64,000 bases of DNA from an uncultured Acidobacteriaceae bacterium (GCA_963708575.1 CAVPTB010000003.1:44379-108378), one strand, 5' to 3'. Counted from the first letter of the stretch, positions 2,355 to 61,982 are shown. Notes: generated from the letters alone by a model not told the origin. Translations and numbers: made by a program.

Positions 2355-3436
2355 ATGCTTCGACCCGCGGCCTTGCTGCTTCTACTGTCTTCCCTGTTAG
2401 CGGCACAACAGACACCCTCACTGCCTTCGCCCACGGGGCCACATCTCGTCGGCAATTCGGCTTTTGCTGCGGATGGCGAAACCGTGATGGTCTGGTACCC
2501 GGCGCAGCAAGCCGGAACCGCTGCGCCCTACGCACCGAAGAGTCTGCTGGCCCGCATTGAGAAAGAGGGCTACTACGAGCAATCGGCCAGCACCATCGAA
2601 ACATGGGCCAACGTCAACACTCACGCGTATGCGGACGCAAAACCAATTGCGGATCGCGCGCCTTTGCTCATCTTTCTGCCGGGGCGGGAGTGTACGGCTT
2701 TCAGTACACAGCTCTGGCCGAGGAATTCGCCAGCCACGGATATGTGGTAGCGGTAGTGGATTATTTTTCTCTGCAGGCGCCCAAGCGCAGCTATGGCGAT
2801 GACGACTTTGCTGCCATGGAAAACGACATGGCGCGGGCGGCAATAGCGACCCTGAAGGCGCTGAGTTCAAGTGCGCAATGGTCCAGCCGGATTCGTCTGG
2901 ATCATGTTGGAGTCGCCGGGCATTCGATTGGTGGGGCGGCGGCGATCGCTGCCGCGCGTCTGGACCGGAGGTTTGTGGCTTCGGCTGACCTGGATGGCGC
3001 TCCTTTCGGAGAGTCGGTTCGCGGCGCGGCGTCGCCTGTGCTGGTTCTTCGCAGTAAGCCTATGTACTCCGATGCTGAACTTACCAAGCGTGGACGCTCT
3101 CGCGAACAGTGGGACAAGATGGGGCAAGAGGCGCGGAAAGTATGGACCGATTTCGAAGCGAAAAGCGGCGCTACGAAAGTGGAAGTCTGGTCGGTGCAGG
3201 GGACGGGACATTTCAGTTTCAGCGACGCTCCGTTCGTTATGCCAGACGCGATCACGCGCTTCGGAGGAAACACGACAACGGCTGAACGCGCGCAACAAGT
3301 GATCGCGGGCTGTCTGACGGAGTTTTTCGATGAGTATGTGGGATTGACTCATTCAGCGGGAAAAAGCACTCCCGGGAAATGTTCGGCTTTCCCGGAGATC
3401 GTGCCGGGGATTCCTCCGGAGGTACCTCATCGTTAG
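2355..3436 (+). pseudogene. Secreted alpha/beta hydrolase (lipase / PAF-acetylhydrolase-like, GHSIGG nucleophile elbow), frame-disrupted
   Basis: ORF 2292-2750 (signal peptide MLRPAALLLLLSSLLAAQQ ... PLLIFLPG) continues in ORF 2603-3436 in another frame (AGVYGFQYTALAEEFASHGYVVAVVDY ... GVAGHSIGGAAAI). The junction is in the G4 run at 2681-2684. Confidence 0.75.
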
Positions 3437-3444
3437 GTGTGGGG

Positions 3445-3580
3445 GAAGGCAAAAGCTATTACGACAAGGACACAGAAGCACGAGGCAAGATCAAGACTTT
3501 CACCACAAAGGACACTAAGGGAACACGAAGGAAGATCAAGGCCCCCCCCAGGGAACAGAGGGCGCGGAGGAATGCAGGTT
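3445..3580 (+). repeat. Family-1 intergenic repeat array (about 3 degenerate ~45-nt units; core CTTTCACCACnAAGGACACTAAGGrrCACGAAGGA)
   Basis: Contains ...ctttcaccacaaaggacactaagggaacacgaaggaagatcaagg..., purine-rich and T-poor on the plus strand. Lies between the convergent stops of the hydrolase and vapC. Confidence 0.8.
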
Positions 3581-3583
3581 AGG

Positions 3584-4000
3584 CTAGGCGAAGGGATTTT
3601 CAATTCGTATGCCGGCGATCAATTGTTGGGCATTCATATCTTCCGAAAGAATTCGCGTGGCTCCGGCTTTGGCGGCGGAGGCGACGATCAAGGCGTCCCA
3701 AAAACTGATGCGAGCTTCGTCCTCCAGGCGGAAGGCTACGGAGATCTCGGCTGAAGTTGTCTCGGTGGACCAGATGGAATAACTGTTGACCACGAGGCGG
3801 GCCACGTCTTTCGGCAGGGGCGCGGCGAATTTCCGAGTTACGTTCACATAGAACTCTTGCAACACTTGCGGGCTGAGAACGCCGGTGCGCTCGGTCCACA
3901 AAGTTCGCAGGACGGTTTTCGCGGCTTCATGCTTTGTCTTAGCGTCGGCGTCGTGAGCATAGATCAGGACGTTGGTGTCGACGAAGGTTCTATCGCTCAT
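3584..4000 (-). CDS. vapC: Type II toxin, PIN-domain ribonuclease VapC
   Basis: 138 aa, N-terminus FVDTNVLIYAHD (PIN acidic motif). 11-nt overlap with the upstream small antitoxin gene. Confidence 0.9.
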   Translation of the reverse strand: MSDRTFVDTNVLIYAHDADAKTKHEAAKTVLRTLWTERTGVLSPQVLQEFYVNVTRKFAAPLPKDVARLVVNSYSIWSTETTSAEISVAFRLEDEARISFWDALIVASAAKAGATRILSEDMNAQQLIAGIRIENPFA

Positions 4001-4226
4001 GCCATTGGTCGCGAGAGGCGGAAATCAGACCTCCGAGGTGAAAGCCTTGATCGAGCAGAGCCATGGCTTGGCGCTCAGCCCGTTCATAGGCCTCTTCCTC
4101 GCCTACCAAGAGCTCAATCTGCTGCGCCAGGAGGCCGGTAATGGAGGTCTCGCGCCTTGCGGCCAGGATCTTGGCTTTGCGGATCGTTTCTTTTGTCAGG
4201 CTAATCGTTATATTTTGCTTATACAT
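3990..4226 (-). CDS. vapB: Type II antitoxin (ribbon-helix-helix-like, VapB)
   Basis: 78 aa. N-terminal beta-strand/helix pattern NITISLTKETIRKAKILAARRETSITGLL. Overlaps vapC. Confidence 0.8.
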   Translation of the reverse strand: MYKQNITISLTKETIRKAKILAARRETSITGLLAQQIELLVGEEEAYERAERQAMALLDQGFHLGGLISASRDQWHER

Positions 4227-4236
4227 ACTGATATAT

Positions 4237-4270
4237 CACGTATATTACGTGTAACACGTTTTATGCGTGT
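4237..4270 (-). promoter_or_regulatory. Candidate vapBC operator: two ACGT-centred inverted repeats
   Basis: CACGTA-tat-TACGTG (4237-4251) and ACACG-N7-CGTGT (4254-4270), 11-44 nt upstream of the vapB ATG. A TTGACG hexamer lies just upstream on the minus strand. Confidence 0.4.
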
Positions 4271-4290
4271 TCGTCAAGTGCAGGTAAGGT

Positions 4291-4432
4291 CAAAGGCTTT
4301 CACCACCAAGGACACTAAGGGGCACGAAGGACAATCAAAAGCGTTACCACAGGGACACGGAGGAGCACGGGGTGGATCGGATGGCCTTTGCCGCCGAGAA
4401 CGCTAAGGAGCACGAAGGAGGATCAAGGGTTT
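4291..4432 (+). repeat. Family-1 intergenic repeat array (3 units), same orientation as 3445-3580
   Basis: Contains caaaggctttcaccaccaaggacactaaggggcacgaaggacaatc... and gcctttgccgccgagaacgctaaggagcacgaaggaggatcaaggg. Ends 12 nt before the hom stop codon. Confidence 0.8.
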
Positions 4433-4443
4433 GTCGTCGAGGG

Positions 4444-5712
4444 TTAGTCGGCGACACGCAGGATCAGGGTCCTGCCTTTCGGTTCGAGTTCGCTGACTTT
4501 CGGAAGTGCGGCGTCGATTTTTTCGCGGGAACCGGCGTGAGTCAGGATTCTTACCTGATGTTGGGTGGAGTTTCCTTTGGCCCATACGGCGGCGGCGCGG
4601 GCAACTTCGACTCCGTTGCGTTCGAGGACAGTGGTGATTGGCCCGATGGCGCTGGGATCGCCTACTTCGAAACGGAGATAGTGCTTGCTGGCGTAGTCGC
4701 GTTTGCTGGCCCCGATGTTGTTTTCCTGGACGGGACGGAATCCGCCTTGATGGCAGGCGATGTCGACCACGTCGGAGAGAACCGCGCTGGCACTGGGCAG
4801 CGGGCCTGCACCTTTACCGCAGAAGAGCATCTCGCCGACGGCGTCGCCGCGCAAGAGTACGGCATTGTTCTCGTTGCGGACGGAAGCGAGTTGATGAGCT
4901 TGCGGGAGAAGCACTGGCGCAGCACGAAGCGCGACCGAGTTATCGGATAGTTCGGCGGTGGCGATGTGCTTGATGACGTATCCGAGATCGGCAGCGGCCT
5001 GGACGTCATCGGCGGTGATTCCGGAGATACCTTCGACCTGCACCATGTCGTTGGCGACCTGGGCGTCGAAGGCAAGCTCGGCAAGGATTTTAAGTTTCTG
5101 CGCGGCGTCGTGGCCTTCCACGTCGAGTGTGGGGTCGGCCTCGGCAAAACCCTTGGCTTGGGCCTCACGCAAGGCAGCATCGAAACCGAGCTGGTCGTCC
5201 GTCATGCGGGTGAGAATGTAGTTGCAAGTGCCGTTTAAAATCCCGCTGAGGCTCTGGATGTTATTTCCCACCAGGCCATTGCGCAGGGCGCGAATGATGG
5301 GAATGCCGCCGCAAACGCTGGCTTCAAATCCCAAGCGCAGGTTGGCGGTCTCGGCAGTTTTCATCAAGGCGAAACCGTCGAGCGCGAGCAAGGCTTTGTT
5401 GGCGGTGACCACGTGTTTGCCACCGGCCAAAGATTCCTGAATGAAGCTACGGGCAGGCTCGATTCCGCCGACGAGTTCGACGACCAGGTCGCAACCATTC
5501 TGCAGGACTTTGGACGGATTGGTAGTGAGCAGAGCGGGATCGACTCCGGGACGCTCCTTGGCGAGATCGCGAACCAAAATCCGGGTAATGCTCAGGTCGA
5601 CACCAGAACGCTGACGAATCAGGGAGACATTCCGGCTAACAAGCTCAACCAAGCCGCGTCCCACGTTGCCGCAGCCGAGCAATCCGATTTTTAGTTTGCG
5701 TACCGCCATCAA
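4444..5712 (-). CDS. hom: Homoserine dehydrogenase
   Basis: 422 aa. NAD-binding N-terminus KIGLLGCGNVGRG, catalytic-domain motifs, C-terminal ACT-like domain. Confidence 0.95.
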   Translation of the reverse strand: MMAVRKLKIGLLGCGNVGRGLVELVSRNVSLIRQRSGVDLSITRILVRDLAKERPGVDPALLTTNPSKVLQNGCDLVVELVGGIEPARSFIQESLAGGKHVVTANKALLALDGFALMKTAETANLRLGFEASVCGGIPIIRALRNGLVGNNIQSLSGILNGTCNYILTRMTDDQLGFDAALREAQAKGFAEADPTLDVEGHDAAQKLKILAELAFDAQVANDMVQVEGISGITADDVQAAADLGYVIKHIATAELSDNSVALRAAPVLLPQAHQLASVRNENNAVLLRGDAVGEMLFCGKGAGPLPSASAVLSDVVDIACHQGGFRPVQENNIGASKRDYASKHYLRFEVGDPSAIGPITTVLERNGVEVARAAAVWAKGNSTQHQVRILTHAGSREKIDAALPKVSELEPKGRTLILRVAD

Positions 5713-5784
5713 TCACGTCCTTCAGAATTTCAGGGCCCACTCTAAACGCAAAGAGCGCGTTGAGAGTGGGGCATCCAAACCAGG

Positions 5785-6066
5785 TTAAGTCGCCCCTCCT
5801 GCAATGGAAGGCACCAAGAGGACTTCGTCGCCGTCCTGAAAGGCGTACTCGTTGCCTCCCAGGAATCGAATGTCTTCTTCATTCACGTAGACGTTGAGAA
5901 AGCGCCGGACCTGTCCGGCGTCGTCGCGCAGATGCGGCTTGAGTTCCGGGAACTGGGTATCGAGCACGGAAAACAGGTCAGCCAGATTGGCCGGCGAACA
6001 TTCGACTTTGCCGGTGCCTCCGGTATGGCGGCGCAGGGCTGTCGGAATTTGAATTGTGACTGTCAT
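5785..6066 (-). CDS. MoaD/ThiS-family sulfur carrier protein (C-terminus ...SIAGGAT)
   Basis: 93 aa with a ubiquitin-like beta-grasp pattern and a di-glycine near the C-terminus followed by two extra residues. Its start abuts the stop of the ThrC-like gene. Confidence 0.85.
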   Translation of the reverse strand: MTVTIQIPTALRRHTGGTGKVECSPANLADLFSVLDTQFPELKPHLRDDAGQVRRFLNVYVNEEDIRFLGGNEYAFQDGDEVLLVPSIAGGAT

Positions 6067-7336
6067 TTACGCCTCCACCGTTTCCGGAATTTCGCTTTCG
6101 CGACGATCCAAAGTGTTTGCCAGGAATGCTTCGAAATCAGCCAAGCGCGGCCGGATGGGCTCGGCCGACTGGTATTTGCCTTCGAGAACGTCGGTGGTTT
6201 TCAGGCCGTTGCCAGTGATGCAGAGGACTGTGGTCTCCTGGGGAGAGATCCGGCCTTGTTCGTAAAGCTTGCGGGCGCAGCCCACGGTAACGCCGCCGGC
6301 AGTCTCGGTAAAGATGCCTTCGGTTACGGCGAGGAGCTGGATGGACTCGACCACTTCGGGGTCGGAAACATCCTCGGACCAGCCGCCGCTGTTGCGAATC
6401 GTCTTGATGGCGTAGTGGCCGTCCGCGGGATTTCCGATGGCGAGCGAACGGGCGATGGTGGAGGGCTTTTGCGGCTCGATCTCGGCACGCGCCATTTTTA
6501 ACGGCGGTGGAAATCGGCGAACATCCGGTGGCTTGAGCACCGAAAATCTTTACCTGCTTCGGTTCGACCAGGCCGAGGTGGATGAGTTCGTCGAAGGCTT
6601 TCTTGATCTTGGTGATGAGCGACCCGCCGGCCATGGGAACTACGACGTTGTCGGGCAAGCGCCAACCGAGTTGCTCGGCGATTTCGTAGCCGACGGTCTT
6701 CGATCCCTCGGCGTAGTAAGGCCGGAGGTTGACGTTGACGAATCCCCAATTGCGCTCGTCAGCGATCTGCGAGCAGAGGCGATTCACCTGATCGTAGCTA
6801 CCGGCAATGCGGACGAGATTCGCGCCAAAAACCTGAGTGCCTAAAATCTTGGCGGGCTCAAGATCGGCGGGAATGAAGATCCAGGCCTTGAATCCATTGC
6901 GGGCAGCCTGCGCGGCAACAGAGTTGGCAAGGTTTCCGGTAGAAGAGCACGCGACGGTGTCGAAGCCGAAGGCGCGGGCCTGCGACAATGCGACTGCGAC
7001 CACGCGATCTTTAAAACTCAGGGTGGGCATGCAGACGGCGTCGTTCTTCACGTAGAGATTGGTTGAGCCGATGGACTTGGCTAACTGCGGAGCGCACAGG
7101 AGTGGCGTGAACCCGGCGGGAACGCTGGGCTGGTAGTTCTCCGGTAATGGCAGCAGCTCGGAGTATCGCCACATATTGGGGGCGCGTGAGGCGATGTGTT
7201 CACGAGTGAACGTGGCACGCACCGCGTCATAGTCGTAGAGAACTTCAAGGGGGGAGAAACAATCGTCACAAATCGACCGGGGCTGATTGCCCCAGTTCTT
7301 GCCACATTCCCGGCAACGCAATTCGTAATGAGCCAT
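6067..7336 (-). pseudogene. Threonine synthase-like PLP enzyme with N-terminal zinc ribbon, frame-disrupted (or indel error)
   Basis: ORF 6137-7336 (CRECG...CDDC zinc ribbon, PLP-lysine motif PTLSFKDR, ...GCSPISTAVKNG) continues in ORF 6067-6540 in another frame (ARAEIEPQKPSTIARSLAIGNPADGHY...). The junction is at the A5 run (plus-strand T5 at 6495-6499). Confidence 0.85.
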
Positions 7337-7395
7337 CTTGCTACTCGCTTTCTAATTCGAGCGAATAGCCGGGGACGAGCCGGAAAGAGTCCCCC

Positions 7396-7440
7396 AAAAC
7401 AACAAAGGCCTCTTTTTCCGGGAATAGGGGGAAAAGAGGC
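7396..7440 (-). terminator. Intrinsic terminator, expression platform of the SAM-I riboswitch
   Basis: Minus-strand RNA GCCUCUUUUCC-loop-GGAAAAAGAGGC followed by CUUUGUUGUUUU. Located between the aptamer and the ThrC-like start codon. Confidence 0.6.
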
Positions 7441-7474
7441 ATCGGAATGCAAAAATAAAGCTCGCATCCGAATC

Positions 7475-7581
7475 TCATGTACCCTGTTTCCAGGAGAGAG
7501 TTGGCACCTGCAACCGGAATGTATGATCCCGGATCGGTTGCCGTGGCGTCATAGGGCTCGTCCCTCAGCCACTCTGCATGA
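7475..7581 (-). promoter_or_regulatory. SAM-I (S-box) riboswitch aptamer
   Basis: Minus-strand RNA UCAUG-CAGAG-UGGCUGAGGGACGAGCCCUAUGACGCCAC-GGCAACC...GGUUGC-AGGUGCCAA-CUCUCUCCUG-GAAA-CAGGGUA-CAUGA. It has P1 UCAUG/CAUGA, the conserved GAGGGA, GCCC, AUGA, GGCAACC and GGUGCCAA blocks, and P4 with a GNRA loop. Confidence 0.75.
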
Positions 7582-7619
7582 AATTCAGGTTTGCTCCGAA
7601 GAGCAAACTTGTTCACATG

Positions 7620-7648
7620 ATAGTAGCGAGGGGGTGGGAAGGTGTCAA
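7620..7648 (-). promoter_or_regulatory. Sigma70-type promoter TTGACA-17 nt-TACTAT driving the riboswitch leader
   Basis: Minus-strand -35 at 7643-7648 and -10 at 7620-7625. The predicted start is about 30 nt upstream of P1. A perfect 8-bp UUCG hairpin (7589-7608) lies in the leader. Confidence 0.5.
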
Positions 7649-7828
7649 GAAGGAATGCTCCGGCGAAGGCTAGGAACCGTAAGTGCAGACAACTCAGCAG
7701 GATAGGGGAGAGCGGCGGGCGACAGCTGCATGTCGGCCGCATCTTTGTGATTTCATCTCTCGGGGGTCTTCGCAGCTCAGGGCGGTTTCAAACAAGTACC
7801 CCAAAAGAGCTGCCCAAGGATATTGCGG

Positions 7829-8953
7829 TTACTTGGTGTTGAGCATGATGGCGACTTTGCCCTTGTCCCAGATAGGGATGGCTAGGTCGGGGGCGCCGTC
7901 GTGGTTGAAGTCGCCGGAGGCAATCGACATCCCACCCGTAAAGTCGATGGTTTCATTGAACGGATGCGCGGGGCCGAATCCTCCCTTGCCATCGCCATAG
8001 AAGAGATACGAATCGTCTGTGTTTGGCACACAAGCAACGTCCAGTTTGTTATCTAGGTTAAAGTCTGCCACTACGCAAGCCTCCGGCGCATAGCAATTGT
8101 TGCATTCGGGAAAATGGAAGTTTGGTTTTCCGAATGTGCCATCGCCATTGTTCAAGAGCACGACCATGGCCTGAGACGAATCGGCAAGTACTAAGTCCTG
8201 TTTGCCGTTATTTCGCAGATCTGCGACTTCAACATCAGATATCCCGCCCCCGCCGGCGTCGTAGTTTATCGGGGTATTGAACTTCCCGCTGCCATCGTTC
8301 AACAATATGGAAACATATCCGCTGATGTTAGTCACCGCCAGATCGGGGTGTTTATCTCCATTTAGATCGGCAGCCGCCACTGCCCAAGGCGTTCGTCCCA
8401 GCTTGTACTTCACAGGTTTCTGTTTGAGTTTGCCAGTTCCCGTACCCATGAAAACCGTCACATAACCGCCATTGGCGGCTATCGCCAGATCTACATTGCC
8501 GTCCCCATTGAAGTCTGCGGTTGCTACCCCGGTAGGTTCAACTCCGGCTTTGTAGGATGCCGATTGTTTAAACTTTCCCGTCCCGTCCCCCAAAAAGATA
8601 GCAACGGTGCCCTCCCCGCTGCCAGTGTACTCAACCACCGCTAAGTCCTGATTGCCATCGCCATTGAAGTCAGCGACCGCTAAAGCAAGCGGACTTTGGA
8701 CTGGAAAGTGGATAGGTTTTTGAAAAGTTCCGTCGCCATTCCCCAAGAGGATTCTGACATCATTTCCAGCAAAACCGGCAATCGCAATATCAAGGTTGCC
8801 ACTTGGGGTAAAGCTATCGACAACTATGCCATATAGCAGATCGCGGGAGTTCACAGCGTAGTAAGCCGGCCGCCGGAACTGTCCAGCAGAGGCCAAGGTT
8901 GATGCAAAGATTACAGCCAAAACCGTTCTCAACACCGAATTCACGCGTGCCAT
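7829..8953 (-). CDS. Secreted FG-GAP/VCBS repeat protein (tandem paralog B)
   Basis: Signal peptide MARVNSVLRTVLAVIFASTLASAGQ and repeated ADFNGDGNxDLAV / DLNGDKHPDLAV FG-GAP motifs. About 90 percent identical by eye to the upstream gene. Confidence 0.85.
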   Translation of the reverse strand: MARVNSVLRTVLAVIFASTLASAGQFRRPAYYAVNSRDLLYGIVVDSFTPSGNLDIAIAGFAGNDVRILLGNGDGTFQKPIHFPVQSPLALAVADFNGDGNQDLAVVEYTGSGEGTVAIFLGDGTGKFKQSASYKAGVEPTGVATADFNGDGNVDLAIAANGGYVTVFMGTGTGKLKQKPVKYKLGRTPWAVAAADLNGDKHPDLAVTNISGYVSILLNDGSGKFNTPINYDAGGGGISDVEVADLRNNGKQDLVLADSSQAMVVLLNNGDGTFGKPNFHFPECNNCYAPEACVVADFNLDNKLDVACVPNTDDSYLFYGDGKGGFGPAHPFNETIDFTGGMSIASGDFNHDGAPDLAIPIWDKGKVAIMLNTK

Positions 8954-8967
8954 TTCGATCATTCTAA

Positions 8968-10092
8968 CTATTTCGCGTTGATCATGACGGCGACCTTGCC
9001 TTTGTCCCAGATGGGAATCGCCAAGTCGGGGGCTTCATCGTGGTTGAAGTCGCCCACAGCAATCGACATCCCTCCATGGAAATCTATAGTCTCATTGAAG
9101 GGATGCGCCGGGCCGAATCCTCCCTTGCCATCGCCATAAAAGAAATAAGAATCATCTATGTTTGCCACGCAAGCAACATCAAGTTTGCCATCTAAATTAA
9201 AGTCCGCTACCAAGCAAGCCTCTGGCCCTACACAATTCTTGCACTTGGGGAAATGAAACTGGGGTTTGCCAAAGGTGCCGTCTCCATTGTTCAAGAGCAC
9301 GACCATGGCCTGAGAAGTGTCGGCGAGCACTAGGTCCTGCTTGCCGTTGTCACGCAGATCTGCAACTTTGACGTCAGAAGTCGCCCCCCCTCCTGCATCG
9401 TAATTTACTGGAGTAGCGAACTTCCCGCTGCCATCGTTCAACAATATGGAAACATATCCGCTGATGTTAGTCACCGCCAGATCGGGGTGTTTATCTCCAT
9501 TTAGATCGGCAGCCGCCACTGCCCAAGGCGTTCGTCCCAGCTTGTACTTCACAGGTTTCTGTTTGAGTTTGCCAGTTCCCGTACCCATGAAAACCGTCAC
9601 ATAGCCGCCATTGGCGGCGATCGCCAAATCTACGTTGCCGTCCCCATTGAAGTCTGCGGTTGCTACCCCTGTAGGCTCTACTCCGGCGTTGTAGGAAGCC
9701 GATTGCTTGAATTTTCCCGTCCCATCCCCCAAGAAGATGGCGATGTTGCCTTGACCGCTGCCGGTGTACTCAACCACTGCTAAATCCTGATTGCCGTCGC
9801 CGTTAAAGTCAGCGACCGCTAAAGCAAGCGGACTTTGGACTGGAAAGTGTATAGGTTTTTGAAAAGTTCCGTCGCCATTCCCCAAGAGGATTCTGACATC
9901 ATTTCCAGCAAAACCGGCAATCGCAATATCAAGGTTGCCACTTGGGGTAAAGCTATCGACAACTATGCCATATAGCAGATCGCGGGAGTTCACAGCGTAG
10001 TAAGCCGGCCGCCGGAACTGTCCGGCAGAGGCCAAACTGGAAGCAAAAACTACAGCCAAAACCACCATTAAGACCGAATTCACGCGTGCCAT
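8968..10092 (-). CDS. Secreted FG-GAP/VCBS repeat protein (tandem paralog A)
   Basis: Same architecture. ATG at 10092 is preceded by a GGGGTGA SD. The nominal ORF extends to 10131. Confidence 0.85.
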   Translation of the reverse strand: MARVNSVLMVVLAVVFASSLASAGQFRRPAYYAVNSRDLLYGIVVDSFTPSGNLDIAIAGFAGNDVRILLGNGDGTFQKPIHFPVQSPLALAVADFNGDGNQDLAVVEYTGSGQGNIAIFLGDGTGKFKQSASYNAGVEPTGVATADFNGDGNVDLAIAANGGYVTVFMGTGTGKLKQKPVKYKLGRTPWAVAAADLNGDKHPDLAVTNISGYVSILLNDGSGKFATPVNYDAGGGATSDVKVADLRDNGKQDLVLADTSQAMVVLLNNGDGTFGKPQFHFPKCKNCVGPEACLVADFNLDGKLDVACVANIDDSYFFYGDGKGGFGPAHPFNETIDFHGGMSIAVGDFNHDEAPDLAIPIWDKGKVAVMINAK

Positions 10093-10336
10093 ACTGATCA
10101 CCCCAAAATACTGACGATAGTCTCCGGCCACTGCGGACGGCTGTCAAGGTGAAAGATTTTGCAAGACCTTAAAGGCTTCTTACTTAGACAGGAACCAAGA
10201 CTGTAATTCCAATTTCGTAACAAGACTCATTTTCACGTAGGCATCATGATCCATTTTGATAGCTTGGCCTCAGTCGCAAGCTGAATTAGCGACTCTCCGT
10301 TTGCCGCCAAACTGTTCACTCTAAAAATTGGAGACA

Positions 10337-18945: not shown

Positions 18946-20269
18946 CTACGGATACAGCCGGTTCAGCGTTCTGGGGAACGGAATGGTTTCTCGGACATGC
19001 TCCAAGCCGCAGATCCAGGCCACGGCGCGCTCAATGCCCATGCCGAAACCGGCGTGGGGAACGCCGCCAAATTTTCGCAGGTCGAGATACCAGTTGAAGG
19101 CTTCTTCGGGCAAGCCATGTTCGTGAATGCGCTGGAGGAGCAGGTCGTAGGACGCCATACGCTGCGATCCTCCGATAATTTCTCCGTAGCCTTCGGGGGC
19201 CAGAACATCGACACAGAGCGCAAGGTCCGGGACGTTTCGGATCGGGCTCCATGTAAAACGCTTTGACCTTGGCGGGATAGCGATGCACCATCACCGGCTT
19301 GTCGAATTGCGAGGAGATGTAAGTTTCGTCGGGCGAGCCGAGGTCTCCGCCCCATTCAAAATTGTTTTCGAGCGCACCTTTGGCGTGGGCGTCTTGCAGC
19401 ATCTTGACGGCCTCGTCGTAGGTGATGCGAGGGAACGGGGCCTCGATCTTTTCCAGCTTCGCAACATCGCGGCCGATAGTCTGCAGGTCGGGACGGCGCT
19501 TTTCGAGGCAGCGCTTGACGATGAAGCTGATGAAGTTCTCGGCGAGTTCCATGATGTCGTCGAGTTCGCCGTACGCGACCTCGGGTTCGACCATCCAGAA
19601 TTCGGTGAGGTGACGGCGGGTCTTGGACTTTTCCGCGCGAAACGTGGGTCCGAAAGAATAGACCTTGCCCAGTGCCATAGCGGTTGCTTCGATATAGAGC
19701 TGGCCGGATTGAGTGAGGAAAGCCTGTTCCTCGAAGTAATCGACGGGGAATAGCGTCGTGGTGCCTTCGCAAGCGGCAGGCGTGAGGATCGGCGGATCGG
19801 TGAGGGTGAAGCCGCGTTCGTCGAAGAAGTCGCGAGCGGCTTTGATGATTTCGGCGCGGACACGCAGGATCGCAGCTTGCCGCAGGGAGCGCACCCAGAG
19901 GTGGCGATGCTCCATGAGGAATTCGGTGCCGTGCTCTTTAGGAGTAATTGGGTAAGGCGTCGATTCCGGGACCCGTTGCACAATCTGGACATTCGATACG
20001 TCGAGCTCGAAGCCCCCGGGGGCGCGTTTGTCAGCCCGAACCTTGCCTTCGACTATGACGCTCGATTCCTGGGTGAGGGTCTTGATGGCGTCGAAGACTT
20101 CGGGAGCGACGGCATTCTTGGGAACGACTCCCTGAATCACTCCGGAGCCATCGCGAAATTGGGGGAAGAGCAATTTGCCACTCTCCCGCAGGTTGTACAG
20201 CCAGCCTCGGATAGTAACGGTCTGGCCATCATGTTTACCGATATCAACGATCGTGGTGACAGGAGACAT
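18946..20269 (-). pseudogene. asnS: Asparagine--tRNA ligase, frame-disrupted (or indel error)
   Basis: ORF 19031-20269 carries class II motifs ([21 protein letters not shown]) up to ...KAFYMEPDP. The C-terminus ([29 protein letters not shown]...[15 protein letters not shown]...[10 protein letters not shown]) is in the frame of ORF 18946-19158. The junction is at about 19222-19245. Confidence 0.9.
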
Positions 20270-20282
20270 AAGAATTTATAAT

Positions 20283-61568: not shown

Positions 61569-61982
61569 TCAGATTAAGCGAAGCTCGGAAAAATCTTGCC
61601 TGTATCTGGTGGCATCCAGCGTCATCAGTCGATCCGCGGAGATGGAGGCGTGTGCCGCAATGATGAAATCAGCCGGCAAACGTTTGGGGACTCTCACTTT
61701 GGAGCTACGTCGTCGGTCAGCATAATTTGCGAATGCTTTGGCGGCTCTCAGCCAGACTAATTGCCCGAGATCAAAATCGACCACGATGTTGGTATCGAGC
61801 AGGAATTGATCGACAAAGCTGACGGTAACCTTTGGGTGCGCCAACAGTTCCGCATAGACTGGAGCGGAGATGACAAGTCCACCTTCCGCATAGGCTGAGT
61901 CCAACTGTCCTTCGATCTGGGAGGCGGTGGGTTCACCGGACCAGAGCGCCGAAAGAACACTTGTATCAAGCGCAGTTCTCAC
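61569..61982 (-). CDS. vapC: Type II toxin, PIN-domain VapC
   Basis: ALDTSVLSALW N-terminal PIN motif. 4-nt overlap with the antitoxin gene. Confidence 0.9.
   Translation of the reverse strand: MRTALDTSVLSALWSGEPTASQIEGQLDSAYAEGGLVISAPVYAELLAHPKVTVSFVDQFLLDTNIVVDFDLGQLVWLRAAKAFANYADRRRSSKVRVPKRLPADFIIAAHASISADRLMTLDATRYRQDFSELRLI

Follow-up and report, generated by a model that had tools for sequence, protein, structure and literature searches.

Synthesis of homocysteine by a relative of threonine synthase (ThrC) has been described in Streptomyces albulus. There, MetM is reported to be a homocysteine synthase that acts on O-phosphohomoserine and depends on the thiocarboxylate of a small carrier protein, MetO, which is matured by Mec and loaded with sulfur by MoeZ; a riboswitch for S-adenosylmethionine (SAM) is likewise reported upstream of metM (Hasebe, Adachi, Maruyama and Hamano 2024, Appl Environ Microbiol 90:e01247-24). 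The MetM, MetO, Mec and MoeZ steps are included in GapMind 2026, where MetM is called 'often misannotated' as threonine synthase. Here we describe a locus of this kind in a 64-kb stretch of one genome, that of an uncultured Acidobacteriaceae bacterium (GCA_963708575.1, CAVPTB010000003.1:44379-108378; 64,000 nucleotides, hereafter the window). On the minus strand, running from 7648 to 4444, a SAM-I riboswitch precedes genes for a ThrC-family enzyme, a sulfur carrier and a homoserine dehydrogenase (hom), and the locus is probably a SAM-repressed metM-metO-hom operon (probability roughly 0.8). Observed directly are the riboswitch with its conservation, the order of the genes, the families to which their products belong and the separation of the enzyme from canonical ThrC. 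The pathway as such is already known, having been published in 2024 and built into an annotation tool; what is new here is the phylum. An earlier note on this DNA, made from the sequence alone, had pointed to a Streptomyces MetM/MetO route, which is the published one, and knew of no characterisation of the route in Acidobacteriota. In keeping with this, the literature searched contained no paper tying the MetM/MetO route, or a SAM riboswitch together with threonine synthase, to Acidobacteria.

The window shares with S. albulus a ThrC-homologous enzyme encoded beside a small carrier gene, a SAM riboswitch upstream, a carrier that needs C-terminal maturation, and an enzyme named 'threonine synthase' in databases. 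It differs in its phylum (Acidobacteriota, Terriglobales), in the hom gene appended in the window's sub-lineage, in the variable tail of the carrier, which is Ala-Thr in the window, and in a conserved leader segment complementary to the P2 hairpin of the riboswitch (anti-P2). Three traits of MetM/MetO that can be checked by comparison are thus found together at the locus: an enzyme that resembles ThrC but stands apart from it, a Gly-Gly carrier encoded next to this enzyme, and a SAM riboswitch. The CysM/CysO/Mec/MoeZ system of Mycobacterium tuberculosis, in which O-phosphoserine and the CysO thiocarboxylate give cysteine, follows the same logic, in that a fold-type II pyridoxal 5'-phosphate (PLP) enzyme combines a phosphorylated hydroxy-amino acid with the sulfur of a carrier thiocarboxylate. 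Unlike CysM, the window enzyme belongs to the ThrC family rather than to CysM/CysK, and its proposed substrate is one carbon longer. The HcyS/HcyD/HcyF/MetY route of Wolinella succinogenes also draws its homocysteine sulfur from a ubiquitin-like carrier thiocarboxylate, but it uses O-acetylhomoserine and a MetY-type (fold-type I) sulfhydrylase instead of a ThrC-type enzyme and O-phosphohomoserine (Krishnamoorthy and Begley 2011).

The SAM-I leader and its conservation

The window leader matched the Rfam SAM-I model RF00162 at 7472-7584 with 71.3 bits (gathering score 44.4, E = 1.1e-14) over the full model (positions 1-108), and this was the sole Rfam match in the 64-kb window. The comparison with RF00162 had been proposed in the earlier note, which had recognised a SAM-I leader from its conserved blocks and pairings. 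A scan of species-representative genomes yielded at least 415 confirmed relatives, from which the best 80 loci were taken with their flanks; almost all are Terriglobales metagenome-assembled genomes (MAGs), 77-86% identical. Gene-order counts below cover 83 loci (L001-L083) and aptamer counts the best 80. With a covariance model built on the aptamer, the element was found 5' of the enzyme gene and on the same strand in 77 of the 80 loci; the remaining three contigs hold less than 200 nt of upstream sequence. Aptamer, enzyme and carrier are kept together across the genomes of about 80 Terriglobales species.

Covariation among 63 distinct sequences bears out helices P1-P4, with compensatory changes at 10 pairs. 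Paired cells made up 98.2% of the aptamer alignment, against 38-48% when the partners were slid, and the observed covariation score was reached in 0 of 500 shuffles. One relative matches the window at only 81% of positions in coding DNA but at 99% in the aptamer. SAM binding and switching are the predicted role of this leader. The features of the locus, all on the minus strand and in the order of transcription, are as follows.

7620..7648, minus: sigma-70-type promoter, -35 TTGACA at 7643-7648 and -10 TACTAT at 7620-7625 with a 17-nt spacer (pattern match)
7589..7608, minus: 5' hairpin GUUUGCUC-UUCG-GAGCAAAC, between transcription start and P1 (conserved, with compensatory changes)
7472..7584, minus: SAM-I (S-box) aptamer, P1-P4 (RF00162, covariation)
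7442..7471, minus: small hairpin of the expression platform, between P1 and terminator (predicted folds; same place in relatives)
7396..7440, minus: intrinsic terminator, hairpin GCCUCUUUUCC...GGAAAAAGAGGC at 7408-7440 and U-tract CUUUGUUGUUUU at 7396-7407 (folding, conservation)
7372..7381, minus: anti-P2 10-mer GGCUCGUCCC, complement of the P2 hairpin GGGACGAGCC (conserved in leaders; predicted fold)
6067..7336, minus: MetM-like gene, ThrC-family PLP enzyme with an N-terminal Zn ribbon and a 1-nt insertion (Pfam, NCBIfam, alignments)
6488..6499, minus: stretch with the extra base, either the A5 run 6495-6499 or GGCGCG 6488-6493 (orthologue comparison)
5785..6066, minus: MetO-like sulfur-carrier gene, CysO/MoaD/ThiS beta-grasp family, product ending ...VPSIAGG-AT (Pfam ThiS, CysO match)
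5736..5770, minus: 13-bp hairpin in the metO-hom spacer, without a U-tract
4444..5709, minus: homoserine dehydrogenase gene hom, product of 421 aa if started at the ATG at 5709 (NF004976)

The terminator, previously described as an 11-bp stem with a U-tract, was recovered as a hairpin of 9+2 bp with a 10-nt loop (-12.8 kcal/mol) running into the U-tract. A generic terminator scan overlooked it solely owing to the 10-nt loop. Reading of the sequences showed the hairpin, in the form CCUCUUUUCC/GGAAAAG(A/G)GG with a U-rich tail, in most relatives' leaders, so that the automatic counts (29 of 65 by regular expression, 44 of 66 by a heuristic) are too low. The sub-group L005-L013, L018 and L023 has a weaker version. 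In these loci (leaders at about 7820-8000) the terminator looks degenerate and most also have hom after metO; the enzyme start appears to lie further upstream, so that the proteins have longer N-termini and measure 433-447 aa. Their expression platform may differ. The window leader resembles the terminating S-box type of the Bacillus subtilis met genes in its P1-P4 helices followed by a terminator and U-tract, and differs from it in that folding gave no clear antiterminator, and by the extra 5' hairpin and the complement of P2 beyond the terminator.

The promoter noted earlier as TTGACA-17-TACTAT lies at 7648..7620 and agrees with the consensus at 10 of 12 positions. The match count alone equals chance, with 1.1 such matches expected in 3.6 kb and one found; the -35 TTGAC, however, is identical in 15 of 15 relatives whose upstream regions are otherwise unalignable, and is followed at equal spacing by a TAnnAT-like -10. 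The 5' hairpin at 7589-7608, which is outside the Rfam SAM-I model, keeps its sequence in relatives and shows compensatory changes in L074 and L025. A leader-stabilising role is possible for it.

The MetM-like enzyme, its carrier and the proposed route

The product of the first gene behind the leader is a PLP enzyme of fold-type II, belongs to the threonine synthase family (Pfam PALP, E = 1e-65) and carries an N-terminal CxxC-x11-CxxC motif, whose four cysteines are all conserved across the clade. The earlier note had named the motif and also the family, which PALP and TIGR00260 bear out, but had overlooked that the gene is frameshifted (see below). The enzyme is 32-36% identical to four ThrCs of known structure (from Thermus thermophilus, Aquifex aeolicus, B. 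subtilis and M. tuberculosis), 49-51% identical to homologues from Micromonosporaceae and 55% identical to the homologue of Nonomuraea gerenzanensis. A rough neighbour-joining tree grouped it with the actinobacterial clade and left the canonical ThrCs far outside, which answers the question of its placement relative to canonical ThrC that had been raised before. Published comparisons give 33% identity between B. subtilis ThrC and MetM, and 51.6% between MetM and a Microcystis homologue whose neighbour is 47% identical to MetO; judged by sequence, the identity figures obtained here fall into the same two classes.

All four hallmark motifs of ThrC (PTGSFKDRG, STGNT, NSVNPxR and GNAGN) are altered in the enzyme. 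Throughout the Terriglobales and the actinobacterial clade, PTGSFKDRGM is replaced by PT(L/H)SFKDRVV (PTLSFKDRVV in the window), STGNT by STGNL, and SVNPxRxEGQKT by NVNLRPYYAEGSKT; PVGNAGNIT becomes PMA(G/S)G(S/E)LxT (PMAGGSLIT in the window) and GAAP becomes GCxP (GCSP in the window). Several of the replaced positions probably correspond to those that hold the released phosphate in T. thermophilus ThrC and so direct water to C-beta; if so, their loss would fit a switch to gamma-replacement. The fold, the PLP lysine motif SFKDR and the presumed substrate, O-phosphohomoserine, are shared with canonical ThrC (1UIM, 2ZSJ, 6CGQ, 2D1F), from which the window enzyme differs by the extra Zn ribbon, the low identity, the replaced motifs and its predicted SAM control in place of threonine-pathway control.

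The protein search for the enzyme returned thousands of homologues. The best 120 of these are intact Terriglobales proteins of 417-447 aa, 81-91% identical, and those among them that carry a name are all called 'threonine synthase'. One orthologue with its riboswitch lies on a 2257-bp contig binned as Verrucomicrobiia (L053, DATMRE010000035.1) and is 82% identical to the Terriglobales protein; this contig is probably mis-binned.

The association with a SAM-I aptamer extends to Actinobacteria. The Actinoplanes derwentensis locus (L084, 5852-6001) has an aptamer of 72.7 bits and no adjacent carrier; 10 nt separate the end of the aptamer from the start codon of the MetM-like gene, so that control there is probably translational. 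The Nonomuraea locus (L085), which came from a search of a plasmid collection, has a 68.7-bit aptamer before the enzyme gene, and a carrier of 91 aa, 41% identical to that of the window and ending exactly in ...AVAGG, starts 25 nt after the enzyme gene. A separate canonical thrC, 64.5% identical to M. tuberculosis ThrC, lies 9 Mb away on the Nonomuraea chromosome, and the riboswitch-linked gene is therefore an extra paralogue there. A homologue search seeded with a Micromonosporaceae protein matched only Micromonosporaceae and no Streptomyces MetM.

The carrier gene encodes the abutting 93-aa MoaD/ThiS-like protein announced by the earlier note (Pfam ThiS, E = 1.5e-12), whose Gly-Gly-Ala-Thr end had gone unnoticed. 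Its start directly follows the stop of the enzyme gene (TAA, then ATG), which suggests translational coupling. The parallel drawn with CysM/CysO holds at the level of the carrier, whose nearest relatives of solved structure are CysO of M. tuberculosis, at 44% identity (3DWG chain C, E = 8e-20), and the CysO-type carrier of Amycolatopsis (4N6E). In 81 of 83 loci the enzyme gene has a carrier gene behind it, and VPSIAGG is invariant. The tail after Gly-Gly is variable in sequence and 0-24 aa long, mostly two residues, in the 81 loci; the window has Ala-Thr (5785-5790) and its carrier is two residues longer than CysO, which ends at Gly-Gly. In L035, L045 and L074 the tail runs on for 17 residues towards hom. 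The carrier of Wolinella has a C-terminal extension that is cut off by a JAMM peptidase. The window protein is read, from the invariant Gly-Gly and the variable tail, as a CysO-type, ubiquitin-like sulfur carrier whose Gly-Gly end needs exposure by a peptidase.

The third gene, hom, identified as a homoserine dehydrogenase downstream of the carrier in the earlier note as well, scores 455.9 bits against NF004976 and starts about 72-75 nt after the carrier stop. It follows the carrier in only about 19-22 loci, among the nearer relatives of the window; most other loci have a TetR/HlyD/ABC transporter cluster nearby. The spacer between metO and hom in the window holds the 13-bp hairpin. Relatives' spacers contain unrelated GC-rich hairpins, or measure 10-30 nt without any.

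On the proposed model, transcription would begin at the promoter at 7620-7648. At high SAM the bound aptamer would stabilise P1, and the hairpin and U-tract would stop transcription ahead of the genes; at low SAM, RNA polymerase would read through, and MetM, MetO and, in the window's sub-lineage, Hom would be expressed. Hom would raise the supply of homoserine, which a homoserine kinase (ThrB) encoded elsewhere would convert to O-phosphohomoserine. The carrier would first lose Ala-Thr, presumably through a JAMM/Mec-type peptidase encoded outside the window, and would then be adenylated and sulfurated by a MoeZ-type E1, also encoded outside it. The MetM-like enzyme would eliminate phosphate and add sulfur at C-gamma from the C-terminal thiocarboxylate of the carrier, giving homocysteine, the precursor of methionine and SAM. 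The substrate, product, sulfur donor and partner enzymes in this scheme are proposed by analogy with S. albulus MetM/MetO and M. tuberculosis CysM/CysO/Mec/MoeZ. The earlier suggestion that the ThrC-like gene is a thiocarboxylate-using homocysteine synthase is in line with the comparative evidence, and the physiological product probably lies in the methionine branch, because the SAM riboswitch is universal and the carrier appears translationally coupled in Terriglobales.

If so, a methionine route known from Streptomyces extends to a major soil phylum, with orthologues in at least 415 species-level genomes. Under the name 'threonine synthase', metabolic reconstructions and auxotrophy predictions for Acidobacteriota would misplace threonine and methionine synthesis unless the genes are re-annotated, and the main practical value of the locus lies in re-annotating hundreds of acidobacterial 'threonine synthases'. 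The conserved riboswitch offers an independent, RNA-based marker that separates MetM from ThrC. The picture of how MetM/MetO systems work is left unchanged by the locus.

The interrupted frame and competing readings

Several findings weigh against a functional, SAM-repressed metM-metO-hom operon in the window, among them the state of the enzyme gene itself. As the sequence stands, the gene is 1270 nt long (3n+1) rather than 1269 and is not one open reading frame. The frame of residues 1-282 extends to 6491; the other 143 codons belong to the next frame, which runs between 6501 and the stop at 6067. Close orthologues continue in a single frame through ...STAVKAG(R/N)AEIEPQKP..., and removal of one base within AAAAATGGCGCG (6488-6499) restores ...STAVKNGRAEIEPQKP..., colinear with them. 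Downstream of the shift, substitutions relative to the 81%-identical orthologue number 19, 11 and 71 at the first, second and third codon positions; this third-position excess indicates that purifying selection acted on the downstream part, in the frame of the orthologues, up to a very recent time. On the minus strand at about 18949-20272, a gene for a class-II aminoacyl-tRNA synthetase is split in the same manner by a single-base insertion, with the junction near 19211-19275: residues 1-353 are in one frame and 333-441 in the next, and the 441-aa protein is intact in a relative (L001). Two of the 13 window genes that could be compared with a relative are interrupted, and a related MAG assembly has a similar split gene (L002 compared with L001).

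Were the frameshift real, metM would be a very recent pseudogene and the route would be out of use in this organism, which would take up methionine or make it in another way. The extra nucleotide and the two frames speak for this, as does the fact that no orthologue has the shift. It is nevertheless unlikely, given 143 downstream codons that are stop-free and keep the pattern of purifying selection, and given a riboswitch, carrier gene and hom that are all intact. The interruptions of both metM and the synthetase gene are read as assembly or sequencing indels because of the third-position pattern, because a synthetase that is expected to be essential has a like insertion, and because a split gene recurs in a related MAG; for metM, an error of this kind is the most likely explanation. 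Programmed +1 ribosomal frameshifting on the GUU-AAA-AAU run was considered as well. After decoding AAA, tRNA-Lys could slip onto the AAA of the +1 frame, and by inspection the product, ..AVK-MARAEIEPQ.., would be colinear with the orthologues. Yet more than 200 close orthologues are single-frame, the zero frame offers neither a stop nor a rare codon, no stimulatory element is present, the conserved Gly of ..(A/T/S)G.. would be lost, and a second, unrelated gene has a like defect. Being neither conserved nor set in a stimulatory context, programmed frameshifting was rejected as very unlikely.

The function of the enzyme is open to dispute on other grounds. It scores 268.6 bits against TIGR00260, 'threonine synthase', above the cut-off of 167.1; together with the name borne by its homologues, this would fit a genuine or bifunctional threonine synthase beside which the carrier is incidental or serves another purpose. 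The Microcystis homologue of MetM is also reported to have had threonine synthase and threonine deaminase activity in vitro, with ThrC kinetics on O-phosphohomoserine, and that paper argues that the cyanobacterial lineage lost canonical threonine synthase; because of this activity, members of the MetM clade may retain ThrC chemistry when no thiocarboxylate is offered. Neither the window nor some 1.2 Mb of flanking sequence from Terriglobales yielded a canonical thrC, a scope too narrow to be informative, and the 64-kb window contains no E1, JAMM peptidase, thrB, second thrC or other met gene. Constrained folding of the window leader gave no robust alternative helix that could act as antiterminator, and orthology to S. 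albulus MetM/MetO would be transitive, running through the Microcystis and Nonomuraea proxies. A threonine synthase is improbable all the same. The riboswitch precedes the gene in nearly every Terriglobales genome in the set and in two actinobacterial families, and SAM repression of a sole threonine synthase would be physiologically senseless; the CysO-type carrier gene abuts almost without exception, the hallmark motifs are replaced, NF006050, the nearest model, stays just under its cut-off (296.3 bits, cut-off 303), Nonomuraea has its separate thrC, and misannotation of MetM as ThrC is common by GapMind's account. That the Terriglobales enzyme makes both threonine and homocysteine, as the sole user of O-phosphohomoserine there, is considered less likely than the second control layer discussed below.

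The closest solved relatives of the carrier, which come from the CysM complex (3DWG) and the BexX complex (4N6E), point to a further possibility, namely that the pair makes a different sulfur compound, such as cysteine from O-phosphoserine in the manner of CysM/CysO or a thio-metabolite in the manner of BexX/CysO. This is very improbable: the enzyme belongs to the ThrC family and not to the CysM/CysK branch, its best PDB and NCBIfam matches are all ThrC (E about 1e-46 for the PDB ThrCs), the cysteate synthase model gives only 53 bits (cut-off 325), and the SAM riboswitch and the presumably co-transcribed hom both point to the branch from homoserine to methionine. A MetM-type homocysteine synthase is the reading preferred here.

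The anti-P2 element and the flanking genes

The anti-P2 segment GGCUCGUCCC lies 3' of the terminator, shortly ahead of the ribosome-binding region and 36 nt ahead of the start codon. It complements, without a mismatch, the invariant P2 hairpin GGGACGAGCC in the 5' half of the aptamer. In 74 of 77 leaders it is kept with at most two mismatches, and rough arithmetic gives a chance of about 1e-4 that a given conserved 10-mer is complementary to part of a 113-nt aptamer. When the full leader is folded without constraint, its minimum-free-energy structure contains the long-range P2/anti-P2 helix for the window and for about half of 15 relatives; for most of the other relatives, the fold with this helix enforced lies within about 1 kcal/mol of the minimum. 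On average, the full-leader minimum lies about 12 kcal/mol below the fold of the ligand-free aptamer. By prediction, the element has a clear effect on how accessible the ribosome-binding site is in the window (0.36 versus 0.54 unpaired) and an inconsistent one across the 15 relatives (0.41 versus 0.46). These modelled folds raise the tentative, and on balance doubtful, idea that the Terriglobales SAM-I leader holds an undescribed second control layer that acts after termination through the anti-P2 segment. Were it true, the segment could unfold the aptamer in read-through transcripts, locking the mRNA 'on' or modulating translation, and the switch would be a dual transcription/post-transcription device.

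The genes around the operon differ between the window and its closest relatives. There, hom is followed directly by the TetR-HlyD-ABC genes; in the window, hom and the TetR gene are separated by additional genes (2603-4406), namely a PIN-domain (VapC-like) protein at 3584-4000 on the minus strand and an alpha/beta hydrolase at 2603-3436 on the plus strand. A further PIN-domain open reading frame lies at 61569-61982 (minus). Directly upstream of the riboswitch promoter, the window has two tandem paralogous FG-GAP/VCBS-repeat proteins (377 and 387 aa; 7829-10131, minus), a pair absent at that position in the closest relatives, whose upstream neighbour is ddl.

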